Origin: an uncultured Lachnospiraceae bacterium
Lineage (GTDB): Bacteria; Bacillota; Clostridia; Lachnospirales; Lachnospiraceae
DNA length: 64,000 nucleotides
Direction: 5' to 3'
Assembly (NCBI GenBank): GCA_910578175.1
Contig: CAJTPF010000017.1
Span: 573 to 64,572, forward strand
Shown in pieces: positions 2,990 through 60,993 of this stretch. Both the position numbers and the translations under genes were made by a program. The notes under the pieces are model-generated. The model was not told the DNA's origin, made no database searches, and was given only the letters and a program-made list of their open reading frames with translations. Positions within the stretch are counted from its first letter, which is position 1. Every line of letters starts with the position of its first letter.

Positions 2990-5431
2990 GTGATTGCAGC
3001 GGCCTTGATACTTGGAGAATATATATATAAAATTTTGGGGAGTTCTATTGGGAGGTTTTTAGTTTTTACGGCCGTTCTTTCCGGAACGGCTGTTTTTTTA
3101 AATATTTTTGTCAGGTTCATTTTAAAAAAACAAAATGGAACCGGGAATGGAAAAAGGAAAATCCTGTTTAAAGGAACGGGAATGATTCTGGTCATAGCGA
3201 TTTCCGTGGGAGTGGGAGCCGGGCTTTATGACGGGGCAGCAGGACAGACAGAGAAAATCAGGCAATTCTGCAGAGACGGCAGCAGTTATGATATCTATGG
3301 ACGTATAAAAGAAATAGGGGAAAGAAAAGAAAACGGAGCAATATATGTATTGCTGGAGCATGTCAGAATAGGGGATGCCGAAGGTTCCGTGAAAATCGGC
3401 GGAACCGTTCAGGTGGTGTTTGAGAAAACAACCGTATGGTTAAGACCGGGGCGGGATATCCGGCTGACAGGCACTTTTGCGGAGTTTCGGGAACCAAGGA
3501 ATGAAGGAAGTTTTGACAGTCAGACTTATTATTACAGTATGGGGATTTATGGAAGGTTCTATGCGGAACCGACGGATGTCCAATGGGTGAAAAAAACATA
3601 CTGCCGGTACCGGAACGGGATAATGTATGTCCGAAAGGTTATGCAGAACCGTCTGTATGATATAACAGAGGAAAAATATGCCTCTATATTGGCCGGAATC
3701 CTGTTGGGCTGCAAATCGGAAATCCATGGCGATACAAAAGATTTATACCGGATGGCAGGAATTTCCCATTTGCTCAGTATATCCGGGCTGCATATATCCA
3801 TGCTGGGAATGTGTGTATACCGGATGATGAGGAAACGCTTCCGTTTTGCCGTTTCCGGCGGAGCCGCCTCTGTTTTTGTGATTTCATATGGTATGATGAC
3901 CGGAGGCGGAGTATCGGCGGAACGGGCAGTGATCATGTTTCTGTCAGGTATTGTGGCGGATATGACCGGCAGAACCTATGATGTGATATCAGCATTATCT
4001 CTTGCCGCCATTCTGATCACGGCAGACATACCCATGGCACCGGAGTCGGCTGCCATGCAATTGTCTTTCGGAGCAGTCTTTGGAATTGTGCTGGCAGGCA
4101 GAACGGTATCCGCATTTTTAAATATAAAATCCAAAATGGTACGGACGGTCATGGTCAGTGAGTGTATCAATCTGATTACAAGACCGGTAATAGCCGTTAA
4201 TTTTTATCAGACAGCTCTTTATTCCACCATGATAAATCTTGCTGTGCTTCCGGTGTTCGGAATTGTACTGTGTGGCGGTTTTATCAGTCTGCTTTTCGGA
4301 TTTTTATGTGAGGAAATTTCCCGTTTTATGGTAATGATGCCGGTGGGGATTCTGAAACTGTATGAAATTTTATGCAGGACATATGAAATGGTACCGGGGG
4401 CTGTCCGGATCACTGGAAAACCTCCGGTTCCGGTACTTTTTCTTTATTATGGAATTATGGCTCTGACCGCAGGTTTCCTTTGGATGACGGTACAAAAGCG
4501 AAGCCGCGGACCGGATGGGACCGGCTGCGAAACTGACTGTGAGGAGTTCTGGTATATCCGTCTGGTCAGAAAAATCGTGATACTAATTGTTTTTGTTTTG
4601 CTGAATGTGCTTGTCTTATACGGACGATCCGGTGAAAACTGTATAAAAATGCTGGATGTAGGGCAGGGCGACAGTATTTATATCGGGACGGAACAGGGGA
4701 CTAGTCTTCTGGTCGATGCAGGGAGCAGTAGTCTTACTAAAGTTGCGGAATATGAAATCCTGCCGTTTTTAAAAGCAAACGGAGTAAAAAGACTGTCATA
4801 TCTGATGGTGACACATACCGATCAGGATCACATCAGCGGAATGATTCCTCTTTTAGCAGAGGAATACGGAAACAGGCCTTATGTAAAATGTCTGATCCTG
4901 CCGGATATTCGGGAAGAACTTCGGGATGAGTCTTATCACCGGCTGGAAGAAGCGGCTTTGGAGCATGGGATTCCGGTATTATATCTGTCGGCCGGCATGG
5001 AGATTAGCGGAAGCAATCTTCAAATCTCCTGTATTTATCCTTCCAAAGAAATTGCATTTCGGGATAAGAACGAATTATCACTGAATTGCTTTGTGTCCGT
5101 TAACGGAGTTACCGCCATGTTTACCGGAGATTTGGAAGAACAGGGAGAAAATTTTCTGATCCGTTCCGGCAGGCTTAAAATATGCCATGTCTTAAAAGTG
5201 GCCCATCATGGTTCCAACAGTTCTACCGGACAGGAATATCTGCGCCTGATACAGCCGGAAACGGCTCTGATTTCCTGTTCTAAGCAGAACCGGTACGGAC
5301 ATCCGGGAACGGAGACTTTGAAACGGCTGGAGGCTGCGGGCAGTCAGGTACACATAACCGGAAATTCCGGACAGATTACCCTTCGCATAGGCAAAAAGGG
5401 AAGATATACGGTTGAAAGATTCAGGGATTAA
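2990..5431 (+). CDS. comEC: DNA internalization competence protein ComEC/Rec2 (competence domain + metallo-beta-lactamase domain)
   Basis: It has the multi-TM competence domain (LSISGLHISMLG) and MBL motifs (HTDQDHISG, VAHHGS). It is followed by holA, as in Firmicutes. Confidence 0.85.
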   Translation: MIAAALILGEYIYKILGSSIGRFLVFTAVLSGTAVFLNIFVRFILKKQNGTGNGKRKILFKGTGMILVIAISVGVGAGLYDGAAGQTEKIRQFCRDGSSYDIYGRIKEIGERKENGAIYVLLEHVRIGDAEGSVKIGGTVQVVFEKTTVWLRPGRDIRLTGTFAEFREPRNEGSFDSQTYYYSMGIYGRFYAEPTDVQWVKKTYCRYRNGIMYVRKVMQNRLYDITEEKYASILAGILLGCKSEIHGDTKDLYRMAGISHLLSISGLHISMLGMCVYRMMRKRFRFAVSGGAASVFVISYGMMTGGGVSAERAVIMFLSGIVADMTGRTYDVISALSLAAILITADIPMAPESAAMQLSFGAVFGIVLAGRTVSAFLNIKSKMVRTVMVSECINLITRPVIAVNFYQTALYSTMINLAVLPVFGIVLCGGFISLLFGFLCEEISRFMVMMPVGILKLYEILCRTYEMVPGAVRITGKPPVPVLFLYYGIMALTAGFLWMTVQKRSRGPDGTGCETDCEEFWYIRLVRKIVILIVFVLLNVLVLYGRSGENCIKMLDVGQGDSIYIGTEQGTSLLVDAGSSSLTKVAEYEILPFLKANGVKRLSYLMVTHTDQDHISGMIPLLAEEYGNRPYVKCLILPDIREELRDESYHRLEEAALEHGIPVLYLSAGMEISGSNLQISCIYPSKEIAFRDKNELSLNCFVSVNGVTAMFTGDLEEQGENFLIRSGRLKICHVLKVAHHGSNSSTGQEYLRLIQPETALISCSKQNRYGHPGTETLKRLEAAGSQVHITGNSGQITLRIGKKGRYTVERFRD

Positions 5432-5473: not shown

Positions 5474-6475
5474 ATGAAGAATATAAAAAAGGATTTGGAG
5501 CAGAAAGATATAAAAAGAGCATATCTGATTTTTGGAGAAGAACGTTTTCTGGTACGAAGCGCTAAAAATATGTTACTCCGTGGACTGGTAACCCAGGGGG
5601 ATACCATGAATTTTACCGGATATTCCGGCAGGGAGTGCAATGCATCCAAGATCATTGATCTGGCGGAAACACTACCCTTTTTTGCGGATTACCGGGTAAT
5701 TCTGATTGAGGACAGCGGGTGGTTTAAGACGGCTGCTGAGGAAATGGCGGAGTATGTCAGACAGATCCCGGAGTCTGCCTGTATCATTTTTATAGAAACC
5801 GAAGTGGATAAACGGAATAAATTATATAAACAGGTAAAGGCTAACGGCTATATCTGTGAATGTAAACGGGCATCCGGCAGGGAGCTTGCCCAGTGGGCTG
5901 CACGGTATCTTGCAAGGGCCGGAAAAAAGATTACCGAAAATGATATGAAATATCTGTTAGAGAAGCTGGGAGATGATATGGATAATATCTCCGGTGAACT
6001 GGAAAAACTGATCGCGTATACCTATGGGCGGGAAGTGGTGGAACGGTGTGATATTGATGCCGTCTGCGTCAGTGAGATCACGGGAAAAATTTTTGAGATG
6101 GTGGATGCCATCGGAGGAAGGAAACAGCAGAAGGCATTGGAACTGTATTATGATCTGATCGCTTCCAGGGAAGCGCCGATGAAGATTCTGTTTATGCTGG
6201 CCAGGCAGTTTAATATCATGCTTCAGATCAAGGAAATGAGCGAATATCATATTCCGGCTTCAGAAATGGCGGCAAAGCTTGGAATGCAGAATTTTATTGT
6301 GAATAAGACGGTATCCCAGTGCCGGAATTTTAAATATAAGACGATCCGAAGCGCATTAAAATATTGTATTCGTATGGAAGAAGCGGTGAAACAGGGAAAT
6401 ATGAGTGATAAAATGGCAGTGGAACTGATCATCATCCGATACAGCCGGGCAGAAGGACAGCAGGAACCGAAGTAA
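5474..6475 (+). CDS. holA: DNA polymerase III delta subunit
   Basis: The N-terminus (YLIFGEERFL) is typical of HolA. The conserved comEC-holA-rpsT arrangement supports the call. Confidence 0.8.
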   Translation: MKNIKKDLEQKDIKRAYLIFGEERFLVRSAKNMLLRGLVTQGDTMNFTGYSGRECNASKIIDLAETLPFFADYRVILIEDSGWFKTAAEEMAEYVRQIPESACIIFIETEVDKRNKLYKQVKANGYICECKRASGRELAQWAARYLARAGKKITENDMKYLLEKLGDDMDNISGELEKLIAYTYGREVVERCDIDAVCVSEITGKIFEMVDAIGGRKQQKALELYYDLIASREAPMKILFMLARQFNIMLQIKEMSEYHIPASEMAAKLGMQNFIVNKTVSQCRNFKYKTIRSALKYCIRMEEAVKQGNMSDKMAVELIIIRYSRAEGQQEPK

Positions 6476-9440: not shown

Positions 9441-10553
9441 TTAACGGCAGTTGTCATTTAGCAGGCCGCAGAGGATATCCAGCACCTCGTCCACATGTTT
9501 TGGCCATGCATTTTCTCCCATGTGCCCGATCCGGATAACGGTTCCCGCCAGAGGTCCGAAAGAACCGGCCAGCATAATATCATGGTCCTTCTTACAGATG
9601 TTTAAGATCTCTTCTGCAGTGAATCCTTCCGGTACGTTTATAACGGTAACGGTATTGGAAAAACCGCTGTTCTGATAAAAAGTATAACCGGCCCCGGAAA
9701 GAACCTTCCGGACATGGGAAGCCACCGATGCATGGCGGCCGATGATGTCCGGTTCCGCCTGAATATTATCAAAAGCGGTACGCAGGCCGTAAATATCGCT
9801 GATAGGCATGGTATAAGGAAACCATTTTTTTTCGTAATAATCATCAAATATGGTAATATTGGCATAAAAAGAAGCAATCGGTGTTTTTCTTGCATGCATG
9901 GCGGCTTTCGCCTCCGGGCTGACGGTGACAAAGGTCAGTCCTGCAGGAGCAGATACCACCTTTTGGGAACCGCCGCAGAGAAAATCAATCTGAAATTCAT
10001 CTACATGTACATATTCTCCAAACATGGCGGATACGGAATCAACCACTGTGAGGATCCCGTATTTTTTTAACAGGGGGCAAATCCTGCCGATATCATTCAG
10101 CATACCGCTGGGGGTATCGCAGTGGACAACGGTTGCATATTTAAAATCGTGGTCTGCGGCAAGATAGGTTTCCAGTTCACCGACATCAATGGTTTCATGA
10201 TAATCCGATGTATAAAGGACAGGGATACCGCCGTACAAAGATACAAAATCCTTAAAACCATTTCCGTATATACCATTGTCAATGACCAGGATCCTGTCTC
10301 CGGGTTCTGTCAGACCTGCACAGGCCGTTTCCAGTCCAAGGATTCCCTCGCCGCTTAATATCAGGGTTTCGTTATTTGTATGAAGCAGGGAACTGATCAG
10401 TTCACAGGTTTCCTTATAAAAATCATAAAATTCTTTATCAATATCCGGATTGGTACAGGCAACGGATCTTGCCATTCTCACATTCCCGGCGACCCGGGTC
10501 GGACCGGGAGTCATTAATTTATATCTGGTATCTTCCATAATCAATAAAAACAT
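9441..10553 (-). CDS. PLP-dependent class V aminotransferase (serine-pyruvate/alanine-glyoxylate aminotransferase-like)
   Basis: The N-terminal MTPGPT motif and the Schiff-base lysine context (GGSQKV) are present, giving a class V fold signature. Confidence 0.75.
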   Translation of the reverse strand: MFLLIMEDTRYKLMTPGPTRVAGNVRMARSVACTNPDIDKEFYDFYKETCELISSLLHTNNETLILSGEGILGLETACAGLTEPGDRILVIDNGIYGNGFKDFVSLYGGIPVLYTSDYHETIDVGELETYLAADHDFKYATVVHCDTPSGMLNDIGRICPLLKKYGILTVVDSVSAMFGEYVHVDEFQIDFLCGGSQKVVSAPAGLTFVTVSPEAKAAMHARKTPIASFYANITIFDDYYEKKWFPYTMPISDIYGLRTAFDNIQAEPDIIGRHASVASHVRKVLSGAGYTFYQNSGFSNTVTVINVPEGFTAEEILNICKKDHDIMLAGSFGPLAGTVIRIGHMGENAWPKHVDEVLDILCGLLNDNCR

Positions 10554-23379: not shown

Positions 23380-24067
23380 ACTATTCAGACAGAGTTGTTG
23401 TGGTTAGATTATAATTATCTGAAACAGACGCATGTATGCCCGGTGAAATTGGTTCGATGTTCCACTACAGACAGAAGGAAGTTCTTAGTGTTCTGCAACA
23501 GGTATTTTCAGACGGACGCTACCGGCGGATATTCGGCATCCTGCCTCAATTCCGCCTTTTTCTGACCTCGTGTCAGAAAATAGCTGAGATTCCAGCAGAA
23601 CACTTAGAACTTCCAATCTGTCTTCCGTAGTCACATCGAACCAATTTCACCGGGCATACATGCTGTGTGTTGACAGAATTTATAATAGAAAATCTCAATC
23701 ATCTATATTTTGTCTGAGTAAGTCACGTGGAAAGAACATAGCTGATTCTGGAAATCTGGTAGAGAACAGCAGATGTGAAAGCCTTCGGACACCGGTTGGC
23801 GATTTTCGGAAAACGTCTGATAGTTCTTGGTGTTCTGCCTGAAAAAAACAGCTATTGTCTGACAGGAGGTCAGACAAAGTCAGCAGTTGAGGCATGGATG
23901 CCGAATTGCTGACGGTAGCGTCTGCCTAAGAATATCTTCCGCAGAACACTTAGAACTATCAGGCTTTTGAAGATGAGCTAACCGGTGTCCGAAGGCTTTC
24001 ACATCTGCGTCCGGCTAGACAAATCCCCAAAGCAGAAATCTAACCACAACAACTCTGTCTGAATAGT
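23380..24067. repeat. Nested inverted-repeat complex: a 31-bp perfect outer IR enclosing two hairpin units (X 23430-23663, Y 23769-24008) with mutually inverted ~100-bp cores
   Basis: The outer IR is 23380-23410 / 24037-24067, perfect. Unit X's IR is 23430-23460 / 23633-23663, perfect over 31 bp. Unit Y's IR is 23769-23797 / 23980-24008, perfect over 29 bp. Both units share an inner 17-bp IR (agttcttagtgttctgc, one or two mismatches) at 23480-23496 / 23595-23611 and 23822-23838 / 23941-23957. Core X (23497-23594) is close to the reverse complement of core Y (23839-23940). Confidence 0.8.
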
Positions 24068-53519: not shown

Positions 53520-53825
53520 ATATTAAACCTCCTGTTGTTAAAAATAATATCAATCCTTGAAAGCGCCTTTTTCCATGCAGGAAATGCGGCCGATAAATTT
53601 AGTTTTACTGCGGCATAAGCGGAAGCGCTGCTTTGGCTTATGAAGGATTAAAACGGTATCCTTTTCGGGCAGGGCATTTTCTGCATTGTTACTTCAAAGC
53701 AGATATGAAATGCAGGGCATTTGATACCTGACATCGAGTAACCGGAAAATGGCTGTTCTGATTTTGATTGTGTTCCTAACACAATGGCATAAAGCCAAAA
53801 ACCAAAGCCACTTGGCCGGAAGGAA

Positions 53826-53890
53826 AATCCGGGCAGGATTCGAACCTGCGATGTAAAAAGTTTTAGCATACATTTTGGTATAACCGGATG
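53826..53890 (-). ncRNA. tRNA-like element: acceptor-like stem, U8, 4-bp D-stem and canonical T-arm (GCAGGTTCGAATCCTGC) but no anticodon stem. It could be a Y-RNA/YrlA-like tRNA mimic or a degenerate tRNA-Arg remnant.
   Basis: The minus strand reads CATCCGG-TT-ATACcaaaatGTAT-g-(17 nt unpaired)-GCAGGttcgaatCCTGC-CCGGATT. It lies between the WYL gene terminator and the SPFH-rtcB operon. Confidence 0.4.
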
Positions 53891-53972
53891 AACTATGGTG
53901 AAATCCGTTAGGATTGATTCACCAACTGTTTTACAAGGGATATTGTAATGGAAAATCATGGAAGAATCACGG

Positions 53973-54024
53973 AAAAAAAGTTGCGAACTCTTATTTCGGT
54001 CCGCAACTTTTTTGTTGGATAAGC
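53973..54024. terminator. Bidirectional intrinsic terminator after the WYL-pair operon (minus strand)
   Basis: The stem agttgcg...cgcaact has an A-tract and a T-tract on either side. Confidence 0.6.
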
Positions 54025-59814: not shown

Positions 59815-60993
59815 ATGAACAAAAACAGTGAAAAAGTACAGTCTCAGCAGATGATTTGCCCGGTTGCAAAAAAATGCGGCGGGTGTTCTTATATTGGAGT
59901 GGATTATGCGGATACGTTGGAGGAAAAGCAGAAGGTTGTAAATAAACTGATGAAGCGTTGCGGTACTGTTGAGAAGATTATAGGCATGAAGGAGCCTTGG
60001 TATTATAGAAATAAGGTTCATGCCGCATTTGGAAGGTTGAAGAACGGTACGATTATTTCCGGAACCTATGAGGCTAAGAGCCACAGAATCATTAATGTTG
60101 ATAGCTGCCTGATTGATAATCAAAAGGCGGATAAGATTATATATGATATTCGGAATCTGTTAAAATCATTTAAGATTAAGACTTATAACGAGGATACGGG
60201 ATATGGCCTGCTTCGCCATGTCTTGATCCGATGTGCGGAGGCAACCGGGGAAGTAATGGTGGTATTGGTACTTGGTTCACCGATTCTGCCGTCCAAGAAT
60301 AATTTTGTGAAAGCTATCAGAAAAATTCACCCTGAGATAAGCACCGTTATCGTTAATGTGAATGATAAAAAGACAAGCTTGATATTAGGTGAGAAAGAAC
60401 AAGTGATATATGGAAAAGGATATATTGTAGATGAACTGTGCGGTCTGAAGTTTCGGATTTCTTCAAAATCTTTTTATCAGGTCAACCGGAAACAGACAGA
60501 AGTTTTGTACGGAAAAGCCATGGAGTTTGCAGGATTGTCCGGCAGGGAGAGAGTGATCGATGCTTACTGCGGAATCGGAACCATTGGTATGGCGGCAGCA
60601 GGAAATGCCAGGGAAGTGATTGGAGTAGAGGTTAATAAGGATGCAGTTCGGGATGCGGTTCACAATGCGAAGTTGAATGGAATTCGGAACATTAGTTTTT
60701 ATTGTGCGGATGCCGGAGAATTTATGGTTGGCATGGCTGAACGGAAGGAGCATATTGATGTGGTGTTTATGGACCCGCCGAGAGCAGGCAGTGATGAGAA
60801 ATTTTTGAAATCGGTAGTGAAGCTGGGACCAGATAAAGTGGTGTATATATCCTGCAATCCGGTGACGCTGGCAAGAGATGTGGAGTATTTGAGGAAGATG
60901 GAGTATGAGGTGAAGAAGATACAGCCGGTGGATATGTTTGGGTGGACGGGGCATGTGGAGACGGTAGTATTGATGTCAAGGAAAGATAAATAA
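59815..60993 (+). CDS. 23S rRNA (uracil-C5)-methyltransferase RlmD/RumA family (Fe-S Cys cluster + SAM MTase)
   Basis: The CPVAKKCGGC cluster, the SAM motif DAYCGIGTIG and the catalytic-Cys region are present. Confidence 0.8.
   Translation: MNKNSEKVQSQQMICPVAKKCGGCSYIGVDYADTLEEKQKVVNKLMKRCGTVEKIIGMKEPWYYRNKVHAAFGRLKNGTIISGTYEAKSHRIINVDSCLIDNQKADKIIYDIRNLLKSFKIKTYNEDTGYGLLRHVLIRCAEATGEVMVVLVLGSPILPSKNNFVKAIRKIHPEISTVIVNVNDKKTSLILGEKEQVIYGKGYIVDELCGLKFRISSKSFYQVNRKQTEVLYGKAMEFAGLSGRERVIDAYCGIGTIGMAAAGNAREVIGVEVNKDAVRDAVHNAKLNGIRNISFYCADAGEFMVGMAERKEHIDVVFMDPPRAGSDEKFLKSVVKLGPDKVVYISCNPVTLARDVEYLRKMEYEVKKIQPVDMFGWTGHVETVVLMSRKDK

Follow-up and report, generated by a model that had tools for sequence, protein, structure and literature searches.

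A 64,000-nucleotide (nt) stretch of DNA from an uncultured Lachnospiraceae bacterium (GenBank assembly GCA_910578175.1, contig CAJTPF010000017.1, positions 573 to 64,572; hereafter the window) carries on its minus strand, in this order, genes for two WYL-domain regulators (WYL1 and WYL2), a 470-nt gap, and genes for a slipin of the SPFH/Band-7 type, the RNA ligase RtcB and the nucleotidyltransferase RlaP. The gap holds an element that resembles a transfer RNA (tRNA). We propose that this element is a circularly permuted tRNA mimic, that it is one module of a three-domain leader of about 370 nt on the slipin-rtcB-rlaP transcript, and that the leader RNA serves a slipin-based repair particle as cofactor or scaffold, in the manner of a Y RNA; the probability of this reading is roughly 0.6. 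Comparative sequence analysis establishes the RNA as a conserved structure, together with its secondary structure, its extent from the promoter to the ribosome-binding site of the slipin gene, and its linkage to the WYL, slipin and RtcB genes.

Relatives were gathered by scanning species-representative genomes with the slipin, which has thousands of relatives. The scan gave 522 loci, and the best 80 of the 522 were used. All 80 are from Clostridia, with protein identities of 59-67% in most and of 95% and 89% in the two closest. In 67 of the 80 loci, the motif GGUUCGAAYCC precedes the slipin gene by 260-430 nt, and conservation can be followed block by block in 68 sequences, from a promoter-like block through the slipin ribosome-binding site. 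The tRNA-mimic module occupies 53849-53802 (positions are those of the window) and consists of three successive hairpins:

53833..53849, minus strand: T arm, GCAGG UUCGAAU CCUGC; the 5 stem pairs are 100% paired, 4 of them compensatory, and the T-loop positions are invariant (50 sequences).
53816..53832, minus strand: closed acceptor-like hairpin, CCGGA UUUUCCU UCCGG, which abuts the T stem; 7 of 7 model pairs are compensatory and 91.8% of alignment cells are paired.
53802..53815, minus strand: D-arm-like hairpin, CCAA GUGGCU UUGG; 2 of 3 model pairs are compensatory, and the hairpin is found in 57 sequences.

The pairs of the T stem change in concert, GC:43/AU:18 and CG:50/UA:11 being examples. 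The acceptor-like hairpin, of 5 bp in the window, has 7 bp in most relatives, with the consensus CGUAUGC-loop-GCAUAUCG. The D-arm stems among the 57 sequences are CCA/UGG, CCG/CGG, CCU/AGG, CCC/GGG and CCAA/UUGG; their consensus is CCN-GYGGWU-N'GG, and the GG of the loop is invariant or nearly so. Over the whole module, with 64 sequences aligned by fit to the model, pairing reaches 94.1% of cells, against 78.6% in shuffled and 21-46% in slid controls; 13 of the 15 pairs show compensatory double changes, and none of 500 shuffles equals the result. RNAalifold, run on an alignment made from sequence only, recovers the T arm and the acceptor hairpin with 10 of 12 pairs compensatory. Searches with a covariance model (R1) comprising the T arm, the acceptor hairpin and the D arm find a single full-length copy per locus in 63 loci; every copy is on the slipin strand and upstream of slipin, and loci outside the seed of the model are recovered as well (L028, L062, L053 and L034, at 53-73 bits). 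The single match in the window is at 53800-53857 (56.2 bits), and the distance from the module to the slipin start codon is 283 nt for the D arm, at its 3' end, and 330 nt for the T arm. R1 detects the RNA in more than 60 species of gut and rumen Clostridia, the cultured Robinsoniella peoriensis CCUG 48729 at locus L003 and Hominibacterium faecale SF3 at locus L075 among them.

Judged by these covariations, the topology of the module is that of a circularly permuted tRNA, namely T stem-loop, closed acceptor stem-loop and D stem-loop, as in the bacterial Y RNA YrlA. The authors of the YrlA crystal structure likewise describe a circularly permuted tRNA in which the acceptor stem is closed. The likeness includes the joining of the T and closed acceptor stem-loops without a spacer, the tRNA-type T-loop, the GG of the D-loop, the lack of a free CCA end, and the neighbourhood of an RtcB RNA-repair gene; Salmonella Y RNAs are co-transcribed within the rsr-rtcBA operon. 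In an alignment to the Rfam YrlA model, the T arm and the hairpin that follows it fall in the T / acceptor-hairpin register.

An earlier, sequence-only reading of this DNA had already suggested a YrlA-type tRNA mimic, and the order and covariation of the module uphold that suggestion, but not the cloverleaf secondary structure that came with it. The T arm (GCAGG-UUCGAAU-CCUGC, 53849-53833) and the CCGGAUU that follows (53832-53826) are present on the minus strand as listed; the 24-mer made of the T arm and its 3' flank occurs once in the window, with 0 chance matches expected. The acceptor stem had been drawn between CCGGAUU and an upstream CAUCCGG (53890-53884). The complementarity is there (6 of 7 positions) but is not conserved, being paired in 38.2% of cells in 68 homologues (sequence-only MAFFT alignment); CCGGA pairs instead with the downstream UCCGG. 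Similarly, AUAC and GUAU do occur on the minus strand, but the D stem they were thought to form reaches 83% only through two unvarying pairs, has U-U at a third in 34 sequences, and overlaps the covarying helix P3 and its mini-hairpin (see below); the real D arm is the downstream CCAA-GUGGCU-UUGG. The 17-mer at 53866-53850, described as A/U-rich and unpaired, is A/U-rich but not unpaired, since it holds the 3' strand of helix P1. The interval originally given, 53826-53890, shares its T arm with the real module at 53849-53802, which lies largely downstream. Another cloverleaf, in canonical order, was suggested by the Rfam tRNA alignment of one relative (L033, 28.2 bits) and took the invariant GUAUGCY for the 5' side of its acceptor stem; it was rejected, being paired in 56.9% of cells with an unvarying 5' side.

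The module has the T arm, D arm and 7-bp acceptor helix of canonical tRNAs and of the permuted pre-tRNAs of algae and archaea, and about 40% of the relatives add an anticodon-type stem-loop, then a 5-7 nt linker and the T arm. It differs from them in that a loop caps the acceptor helix, with no CCA and no aminoacylation potential, and in that it lies inside a messenger RNA leader. tRNA finders miss it: ARAGORN reports 0 tRNAs in the whole 64-kb window and, over 60 related loci, makes 1 call inside the element (L020, as tRNA-Asp). At gathering thresholds, no Rfam family matches the site or 15 related loci. In E-value mode, the tRNA model gives 18.6 bits at the site (E 0.47; gathering score 29) and the YrlA model (RF02553) 18.3 bits (gathering score 69), both below threshold. 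The same mode applied to the window and relatives returns sub-threshold tRNA, YrlA and transfer-messenger RNA T-arm matches and nothing more, and apart from these no Rfam family matches any part of the RNA of about 370 nt in either mode.

A perfect T arm, a weak full-length tRNA alignment at the site and the 28.2 bits of the one relative are what one would also expect of a degenerate tRNA gene, of an att scar left by a tRNA 3' half, or of a chance T-arm-like hairpin. These origins, of which the tRNA remnant or integration scar had been named as an alternative in the sequence-only reading, we regard as excluded. Across many Clostridia families, the synteny of the element is kept in 63 loci, and helices that are not those of tRNA show compensatory changes; the acceptor pairing of a cloverleaf is 38% in the earlier register and 57% in that of Rfam. 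The window has no tRNA genes, no sequence repeat at the element and no integrase domain among its 25 open reading frames of at least 330 amino acids. Protein identities of 59-67% in most loci (95% and 89% in the two closest) also argue against a single mobile element that spread recently.

The genetic setting is conserved to different degrees for different genes. Among the 80 loci, WYL1 is present in 58, WYL2 in 64, slipin in 80 (by construction), RtcB in 59 and RlaP in only 6, and the order WYL1-WYL2-RNA-slipin(-RtcB) recurs across dozens of species, which bears out the functional tie to the WYL regulators and the RtcB operon that had been suspected from position. In about a quarter of the loci, the arrangement is WYL-WYL-RNA-slipin without RtcB (L003, L009, L020, L024, L027, L030, L055, L067, L068 and L075). 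What comes next in these loci are unrelated housekeeping genes (examples are SpoVAD and trigger factor, as well as genes for an AraC-type regulator and a sigma-54 activator), and therefore the constant unit is the WYL pair, the RNA and slipin. The same loci indicate that the RNA-slipin pair can stand without an adjacent ligase.

The window copy has no anticodon arm, as had been noted, yet in about 27 of 64 relatives an anticodon-like hairpin stands 5-7 nt before the T arm, and its 7-nt loop follows the pattern Y-U-NNN-R-A. The loops are mostly CUGUCAA, CUGUAAA or CUGUUAA, giving GUN 'anticodons', and CUGACAA is also seen. The hairpin is missing in the window, its two closest relatives, the Robinsoniella group and others, loci L001-L005 among them. 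Such loops raise the idea of a sentinel or decoy RNA, a mimic that would serve as a substrate for ribotoxins directed at tRNA; its fragments would then either signal to the WYL proteins or be resealed by RtcB. The tRNA-Asp call of ARAGORN in L020 and the presence in the operon of an RNA ligase and an end-healing nucleotidyltransferase are in keeping with it. However, the hairpin is absent from the lineage of the window and several others and the loop triplet is not conserved, and we consider this a minor and quite improbable alternative. In many relatives (e.g., L008 at 3620-3672, L014, L018, L036 and L063), a second T-arm-like hairpin (GGGGUUCAACUCCCC) is found upstream of the main T arm, following a stem AUCGA/UCGAU with an inner hairpin; such relatives carry two T-loop motifs.

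The module is not a free-standing RNA of 65-110 nt, as was first supposed, but part of a structured leader in which a 5' domain comes before the tRNA-mimic module and two small hairpins and a 3' rod come after it. The intergenic region has a folding z-score of -4.1. The parts outside the module are:

53565..53935, minus strand: whole structured leader RNA, from the predicted start to the 3' strand of helix A; conserved in 68 sequences, with covarying helices throughout.
53852..53935, minus strand: 5' domain, a three-helix junction of P1, P2 and P3 with a mini-hairpin.
53935-53924 with 53862-53852, minus strand: P1, UGUAAAA(C)AGUU with AACUUUUUACA; moderate support; the 3' strand directly precedes the T arm.
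53923-53916 with 53905-53897, minus strand: P2 hairpin; shared core UGAR/YUCA, picked out by eye.
53896-53888 with 53873-53866, minus strand: P3, GUGCRC/GYGUAU; 99.5% paired, AU:39 vs GC:29.
53885-53877, minus strand: mini-hairpin GGU-UAU-ACC inside P3, GGN-NNN-N'CC; 98.5% paired, AU:33/CG:22/UA:3.
53768..53797, minus strand: two predicted small capped hairpins, UGGC UUUAU GCCA (53797-53785) and UUGUGUU AGGA ACACAA (53784-53768); position kept in relatives.
53565..53753, minus strand: 3' rod of 190 nt, irregular, closed by the 10-bp helix A; supported by covariation.
53753-53744 with 53574-53565, minus strand: rod helix A.
53686-53674 with 53575-53587, minus strand: rod helix B.
53670-53662 with 53589-53597, minus strand: rod helix C.
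53661-53655, minus strand: rod segment GGAUACC.
53654-53652 with 53602-53604, minus strand: rod pairing GUU/AAC.
53642-53636 with 53620-53614, minus strand: rod pairing CAUAAGC/GCUUAUG, with a terminal AAGC/GCUU hairpin.

P1 was scored by direct complementarity against shuffles, since MAFFT misaligns the variable region that holds P1 and P2. The best P1 helix averages 6.5 bp, compared with 5.2 in shuffles, and at least 6 bp is reached in 76% vs 33%; compensatory variants include AUGUAAU/AUUACAU and UGCAAAG/CUUUGCG. In relatives, the place of the small hairpins is taken by a stable hairpin, again capped, of which UGCCGGAAACGGCA and GUCCUUCGGGAC are examples. In the rod, 38 of 41 predicted pairs are compensatory (sequence-only alignment, 55 sequences), and pairing is 88.4% vs 67.9% in shuffled and 37-42% in slid controls, a level reached by none of 500 shuffles; the covariation score is 0.63 vs 0.25. 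The internal loops of the rod are strongly conserved (GGAUACCG; GCCAAAAG...CUUUCCGC; ACUyAA...AGCCGC). Some relatives contain a hammerhead-like CUGAUGAG, which was set aside on inspection by eye since the remainder of a hammerhead core is missing. An open reading frame of 103 amino acids that overlaps the RNA (53648-53959, minus strand) is probably spurious: it has no Pfam match, and conservation there tracks base-pairing.

Upstream, the RNA is preceded by a conserved promoter region:

53976..54011, minus strand: 13-bp inverted repeat AAAAGUUGCGGAC / GUUCGCAACUUUU with a T run; nearly invariant in related loci.
53967..53988, minus strand: promoter-proximal motif GTTCGCAACTTTTTTTCCGTGA, overlapping the -35; candidate WYL operator; its anchor TTTTTTCCGTG is found in 68 of 81 sequences.
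53942..53970, minus strand: predicted sigma-A-type promoter, -35 GTGATT (53970-53965), 17-nt spacer, -10 TACAAT (53947-53942); supported by positional conservation (68 sequences).

The -10 in most relatives is TGGTAAAAT, and transcription is predicted to start at about 53935. A generic promoter scan did not pick up this promoter. The motif GTTCGCARC-T7-CCGTGA is nearly invariant and supplies the -35-like GTGAWA. The inverted repeat resembles an intrinsic terminator of the WYL gene pair, with the WYL2 stop codon in its loop, and in the window GTTCGCAACTTTTTTTCCGTGA doubles as the 3' half of this terminator-like hairpin. In an IMG/VR contig (L081), where the genes are divergent, the motif is present but its partner half of the inverted repeat is not. 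Retention of the motif where no hairpin can form makes it more likely a promoter/operator element than a terminator only. It is plausibly the binding site of the WYL proteins.

The genes that flank the RNA are as follows:

56191-54917, minus strand: WYL1; Pfam WYL; PADLOC WYL model, 1.7e-14.
54917-53991, minus strand: WYL2; PADLOC WYL model, 1.5e-9.
53533-53528, minus strand: Shine-Dalgarno sequence AGGAGG of the slipin gene.
53519-52413, minus strand: slipin/SPFH gene, 368 amino acids; Pfam Band_7, E 5e-29.
52215-50992, minus strand: RtcB RNA ligase gene; Pfam RtcB, 1e-60.
50965-50195, minus strand: RlaP nucleotidyltransferase gene; Pfam RlaP, 1e-86.

Beyond the WYL domains, the PADLOC models give no defence-system assignment. 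Outside the SPFH domain, the slipin has no Pfam match, its first ~150 residues included. In a structure model, it has N-terminal beta-rich (beta-hairpin) repeats, the SPFH domain and long helices. Foldseek with this model finds stomatin, HflK/C and prohibitin as the best matches and major vault protein as the one with the longest alignments, and on the model the slipin may be a soluble, cage-forming SPFH protein. The vault particle consists of major vault protein, which has an SPFH-like shoulder, vault RNA and the TROVE protein TEP1. The slipin system is like it in having an SPFH-fold protein with N-terminal beta repeats and a long C-terminal helix that is genetically coupled to a small structured RNA, and in the length of the alignments to major vault protein. 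It differs in that stomatin and HflK/C match better, the likeness being drawn from a model of moderate confidence; in that a cage is hypothetical here; and in that the leader RNA is unrelated in sequence to vault RNA.

Two IMG/VR contigs, L081 and L082, have the same WYL pair and promoter motif with a different RNA region, and L081 has no slipin. In L082 at 9880-10270 and in L081 at 5600-6230 (minus strand), there are three to five tandem Y-RNA-like units of ~100 nt, each closed by a stem AAGRCNNC/GNNGYCUU beside AACAGCAA; in some units, the canonical succession of D arm, anticodon-like arm (with CAU) and T arm is seen. Downstream of the units, L081 encodes a DUF2828/DUF7788 protein, RtcB, RlaP and a CCA-adding-type enzyme, and L082 encodes RtcB directly. 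A PDB sequence search with the L081 DUF2828 protein, made for a relation to Ro60, gave nothing meaningful. By analogy, this arrangement supports the view that a tRNA-like RNA and a scaffold protein may form interchangeable cassettes. A broader and more tentative proposal, which we hold as possible, is that the leader is a new class of large structured RNA that forms a repair ribonucleoprotein with a vault-like SPFH/slipin cage and RtcB, the whole being switched by WYL proteins through a shared operator that also drives Y-RNA-like arrays with a DUF2828 scaffold; the RNA would then be a slipin-specific counterpart of Y RNA.

Returning to the proposal of a permuted mimic that serves as cofactor or scaffold, for transcription, any processing, protein partners and role of the RNA we infer the following scheme. 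Signals of nucleic-acid damage would act on the promoter through the WYL proteins. The RNA made would fold so that contacts between the T-loop and D-loop build a tRNA-like elbow on the capped acceptor helix, and this combination could be a docking surface for the co-encoded proteins. The elbow surface and the 5' and 3' domains would be bound by the SPFH/slipin protein, by the tRNA-recognising RtcB and RlaP, or by both, and the RNA would thus do for a slipin-based RNA-repair particle, as its cofactor or scaffold, what Y RNA does for Ro60.

Several observations count against this proposal. In an Acutalibacteraceae lineage (L022, L043, L048 and L072), the promoter, the 5' domain, the T arm (GUGGGUUCGAACCCCAC) and the 3' rod are kept without the acceptor-like and D-arm hairpins, and there is no full R1 match. 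The window copy is itself reduced: its acceptor stem is only 5 bp long, and it lacks the anticodon-like hairpin. Since the Acutalibacteraceae keep the T arm alone of the mimic and the window copy is reduced, parts of the mimic are dispensable. The slipin model on which a cage would be based has a confidence of only pLDDT (predicted local distance difference test) 65. The element scores far below the YrlA and tRNA family thresholds, and no Ro60-type closing stem was found, the covariation scan giving no helix between the sequences on the 5' side of the T arm and on the 3' side of the D arm. Finally, no terminator is found between helix A and the slipin ATG in 68 loci, nor on the coding strand, and the abutment of the RNA on the slipin gene without a terminator suits a leader acting in cis no less than a cofactor acting in trans.

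The lack of a closing stem and the low scores bear as well on whether the RNA could be a bona fide YrlA whose Ro60/Rsr partner is encoded at another site in the genome. YrlA itself binds Rsr and is modified by TruB and DusA. The leader RNA has the same order of T, acceptor hairpin and D elements and a weak match to the YrlA model. In place of a Ro60-binding stem made by the 5' and 3' ends of the RNA, however, the 5' flank of the module pairs with the 5' end of the RNA (P1) and the 3' flank forms local hairpins. The module is flanked instead by the 5' three-helix domain and the 190-nt 3' rod, for a total of ~370 nt. As the sequence-only reading had stated, no Ro60/Rsr gene is present: none of the 25 open reading frames of at least 330 amino acids in the 64 kb has a TROVE (Ro60) domain. 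The RNA is always linked to slipin, its partner gene being that of the SPFH/slipin protein, and WYL proteins take the place of RtcR as regulators. With a match of 18.3 bits against the 69 needed, a true YrlA is very improbable.

The relation of the RNA to the slipin start codon is also compatible with another role. Helix A ends 26-57 nt before the slipin ATG in 62 of 68 loci; with the rod so close and no terminator between, the RNA is the 5' part of the slipin(-rtcB) transcript. It could then be a cis-acting autoregulatory leader that works by tRNA mimicry, slipin, RtcB, RlaP or WYL binding to it and repressing translation until damaged tRNAs titrate the protein away. The single copy per operon, the constant strand and the linker ACCUUUAAGGAGG between leader and slipin, conserved in many loci, agree with such a role. 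The E. coli thrS operator is a precedent for translational autoregulation by tRNA mimicry. The leader resembles the thrS leader and T-boxes in having a tRNA-related structure in a 5' untranslated region just upstream of the ribosome-binding site of the regulated gene. It is much larger, however, and the part of tRNA mimicked is the elbow and acceptor rather than the anticodon arm; moreover, neither a specifier nor any pairing of the terminator/antiterminator or Shine-Dalgarno-sequestering kind was identified in the leader. An RNA of 370 nt with three conserved domains far exceeds a typical operator, and position alone does not discriminate, as the Salmonella Y RNAs are also located within an operon. 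Autoregulation is a serious rival, if on balance rather unlikely, and it and a cofactor role are not mutually exclusive.

An RNA of this kind has been predicted. According to Wang et al., a Band-7-associated tRNA-like RNA (b7a-tRNA) was predicted by Burroughs and Aravind (2016) beside a Band-7/SPFH protein and RtcB; it is said there to be functionally interchangeable with YrlA, to 'strongly resemble an authentic tRNA' (as the second-hand wording has it, 'strongly resembles an authentic tRNA'), and, as of 2018, to be without experimental validation. In the later literature, no other description of the RNA was found, and the comparison with the original is made through this second-hand description. 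Judged from that description and from gene context, the leader RNA is most likely the predicted b7a-tRNA: it is a tRNA-like non-coding element adjoining a Band-7/SPFH gene in an RtcB neighbourhood, the same in 63 loci. As far as the second-hand account allows a comparison, it differs in that the window copy has no anticodon arm. A further difference, which belongs with the points against our proposal given above, is that covariation shows a permuted arrangement with a capped acceptor stem and no obvious match to an authentic tRNA.

The role of tRNA-like RNAs in bacterial RNA-repair operons has been a question since Y RNAs were found beside RtcB. The Band-7-associated RNA has so far been a bare prediction for a decade, with no Rfam family. 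A structure backed by covariation, boundaries of the RNA, a conserved promoter/operator and a search model are now available. They define the class precisely enough for tests of RNA processing, of slipin and RtcB binding and of WYL sensing of RNA damage, and they bring one more candidate to the few large bacterial RNAs that are highly structured and have no assigned function. If the proposal is true, a tRNA-mimic RNA together with a scaffold protein would be an interchangeable cassette of RNA-repair systems.

The window, with genes such as SpoIIP, NrdD, HtpG and ComEC, has the look of an ordinary Lachnospiraceae chromosome. About 3.6 kb beyond WYL1, there is a gene of the tRNA (uracil-5-)-methyltransferase family (59815-60993, plus strand; PF05958, 9e-27). 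The T-loop modification of tRNA is 5-methyluridine at position 54 (m5U54), and the proximity may be a coincidence. Two full-length TwoAYGGAY RNAs (RF01731) are found at 23463-23629 (minus strand, 109.7 bits) and 23804-23975 (plus strand, 103.8 bits); they are divergently oriented, ~175 nt apart and unrelated to the element, and they are the sole matches in the window at the Rfam gathering level.

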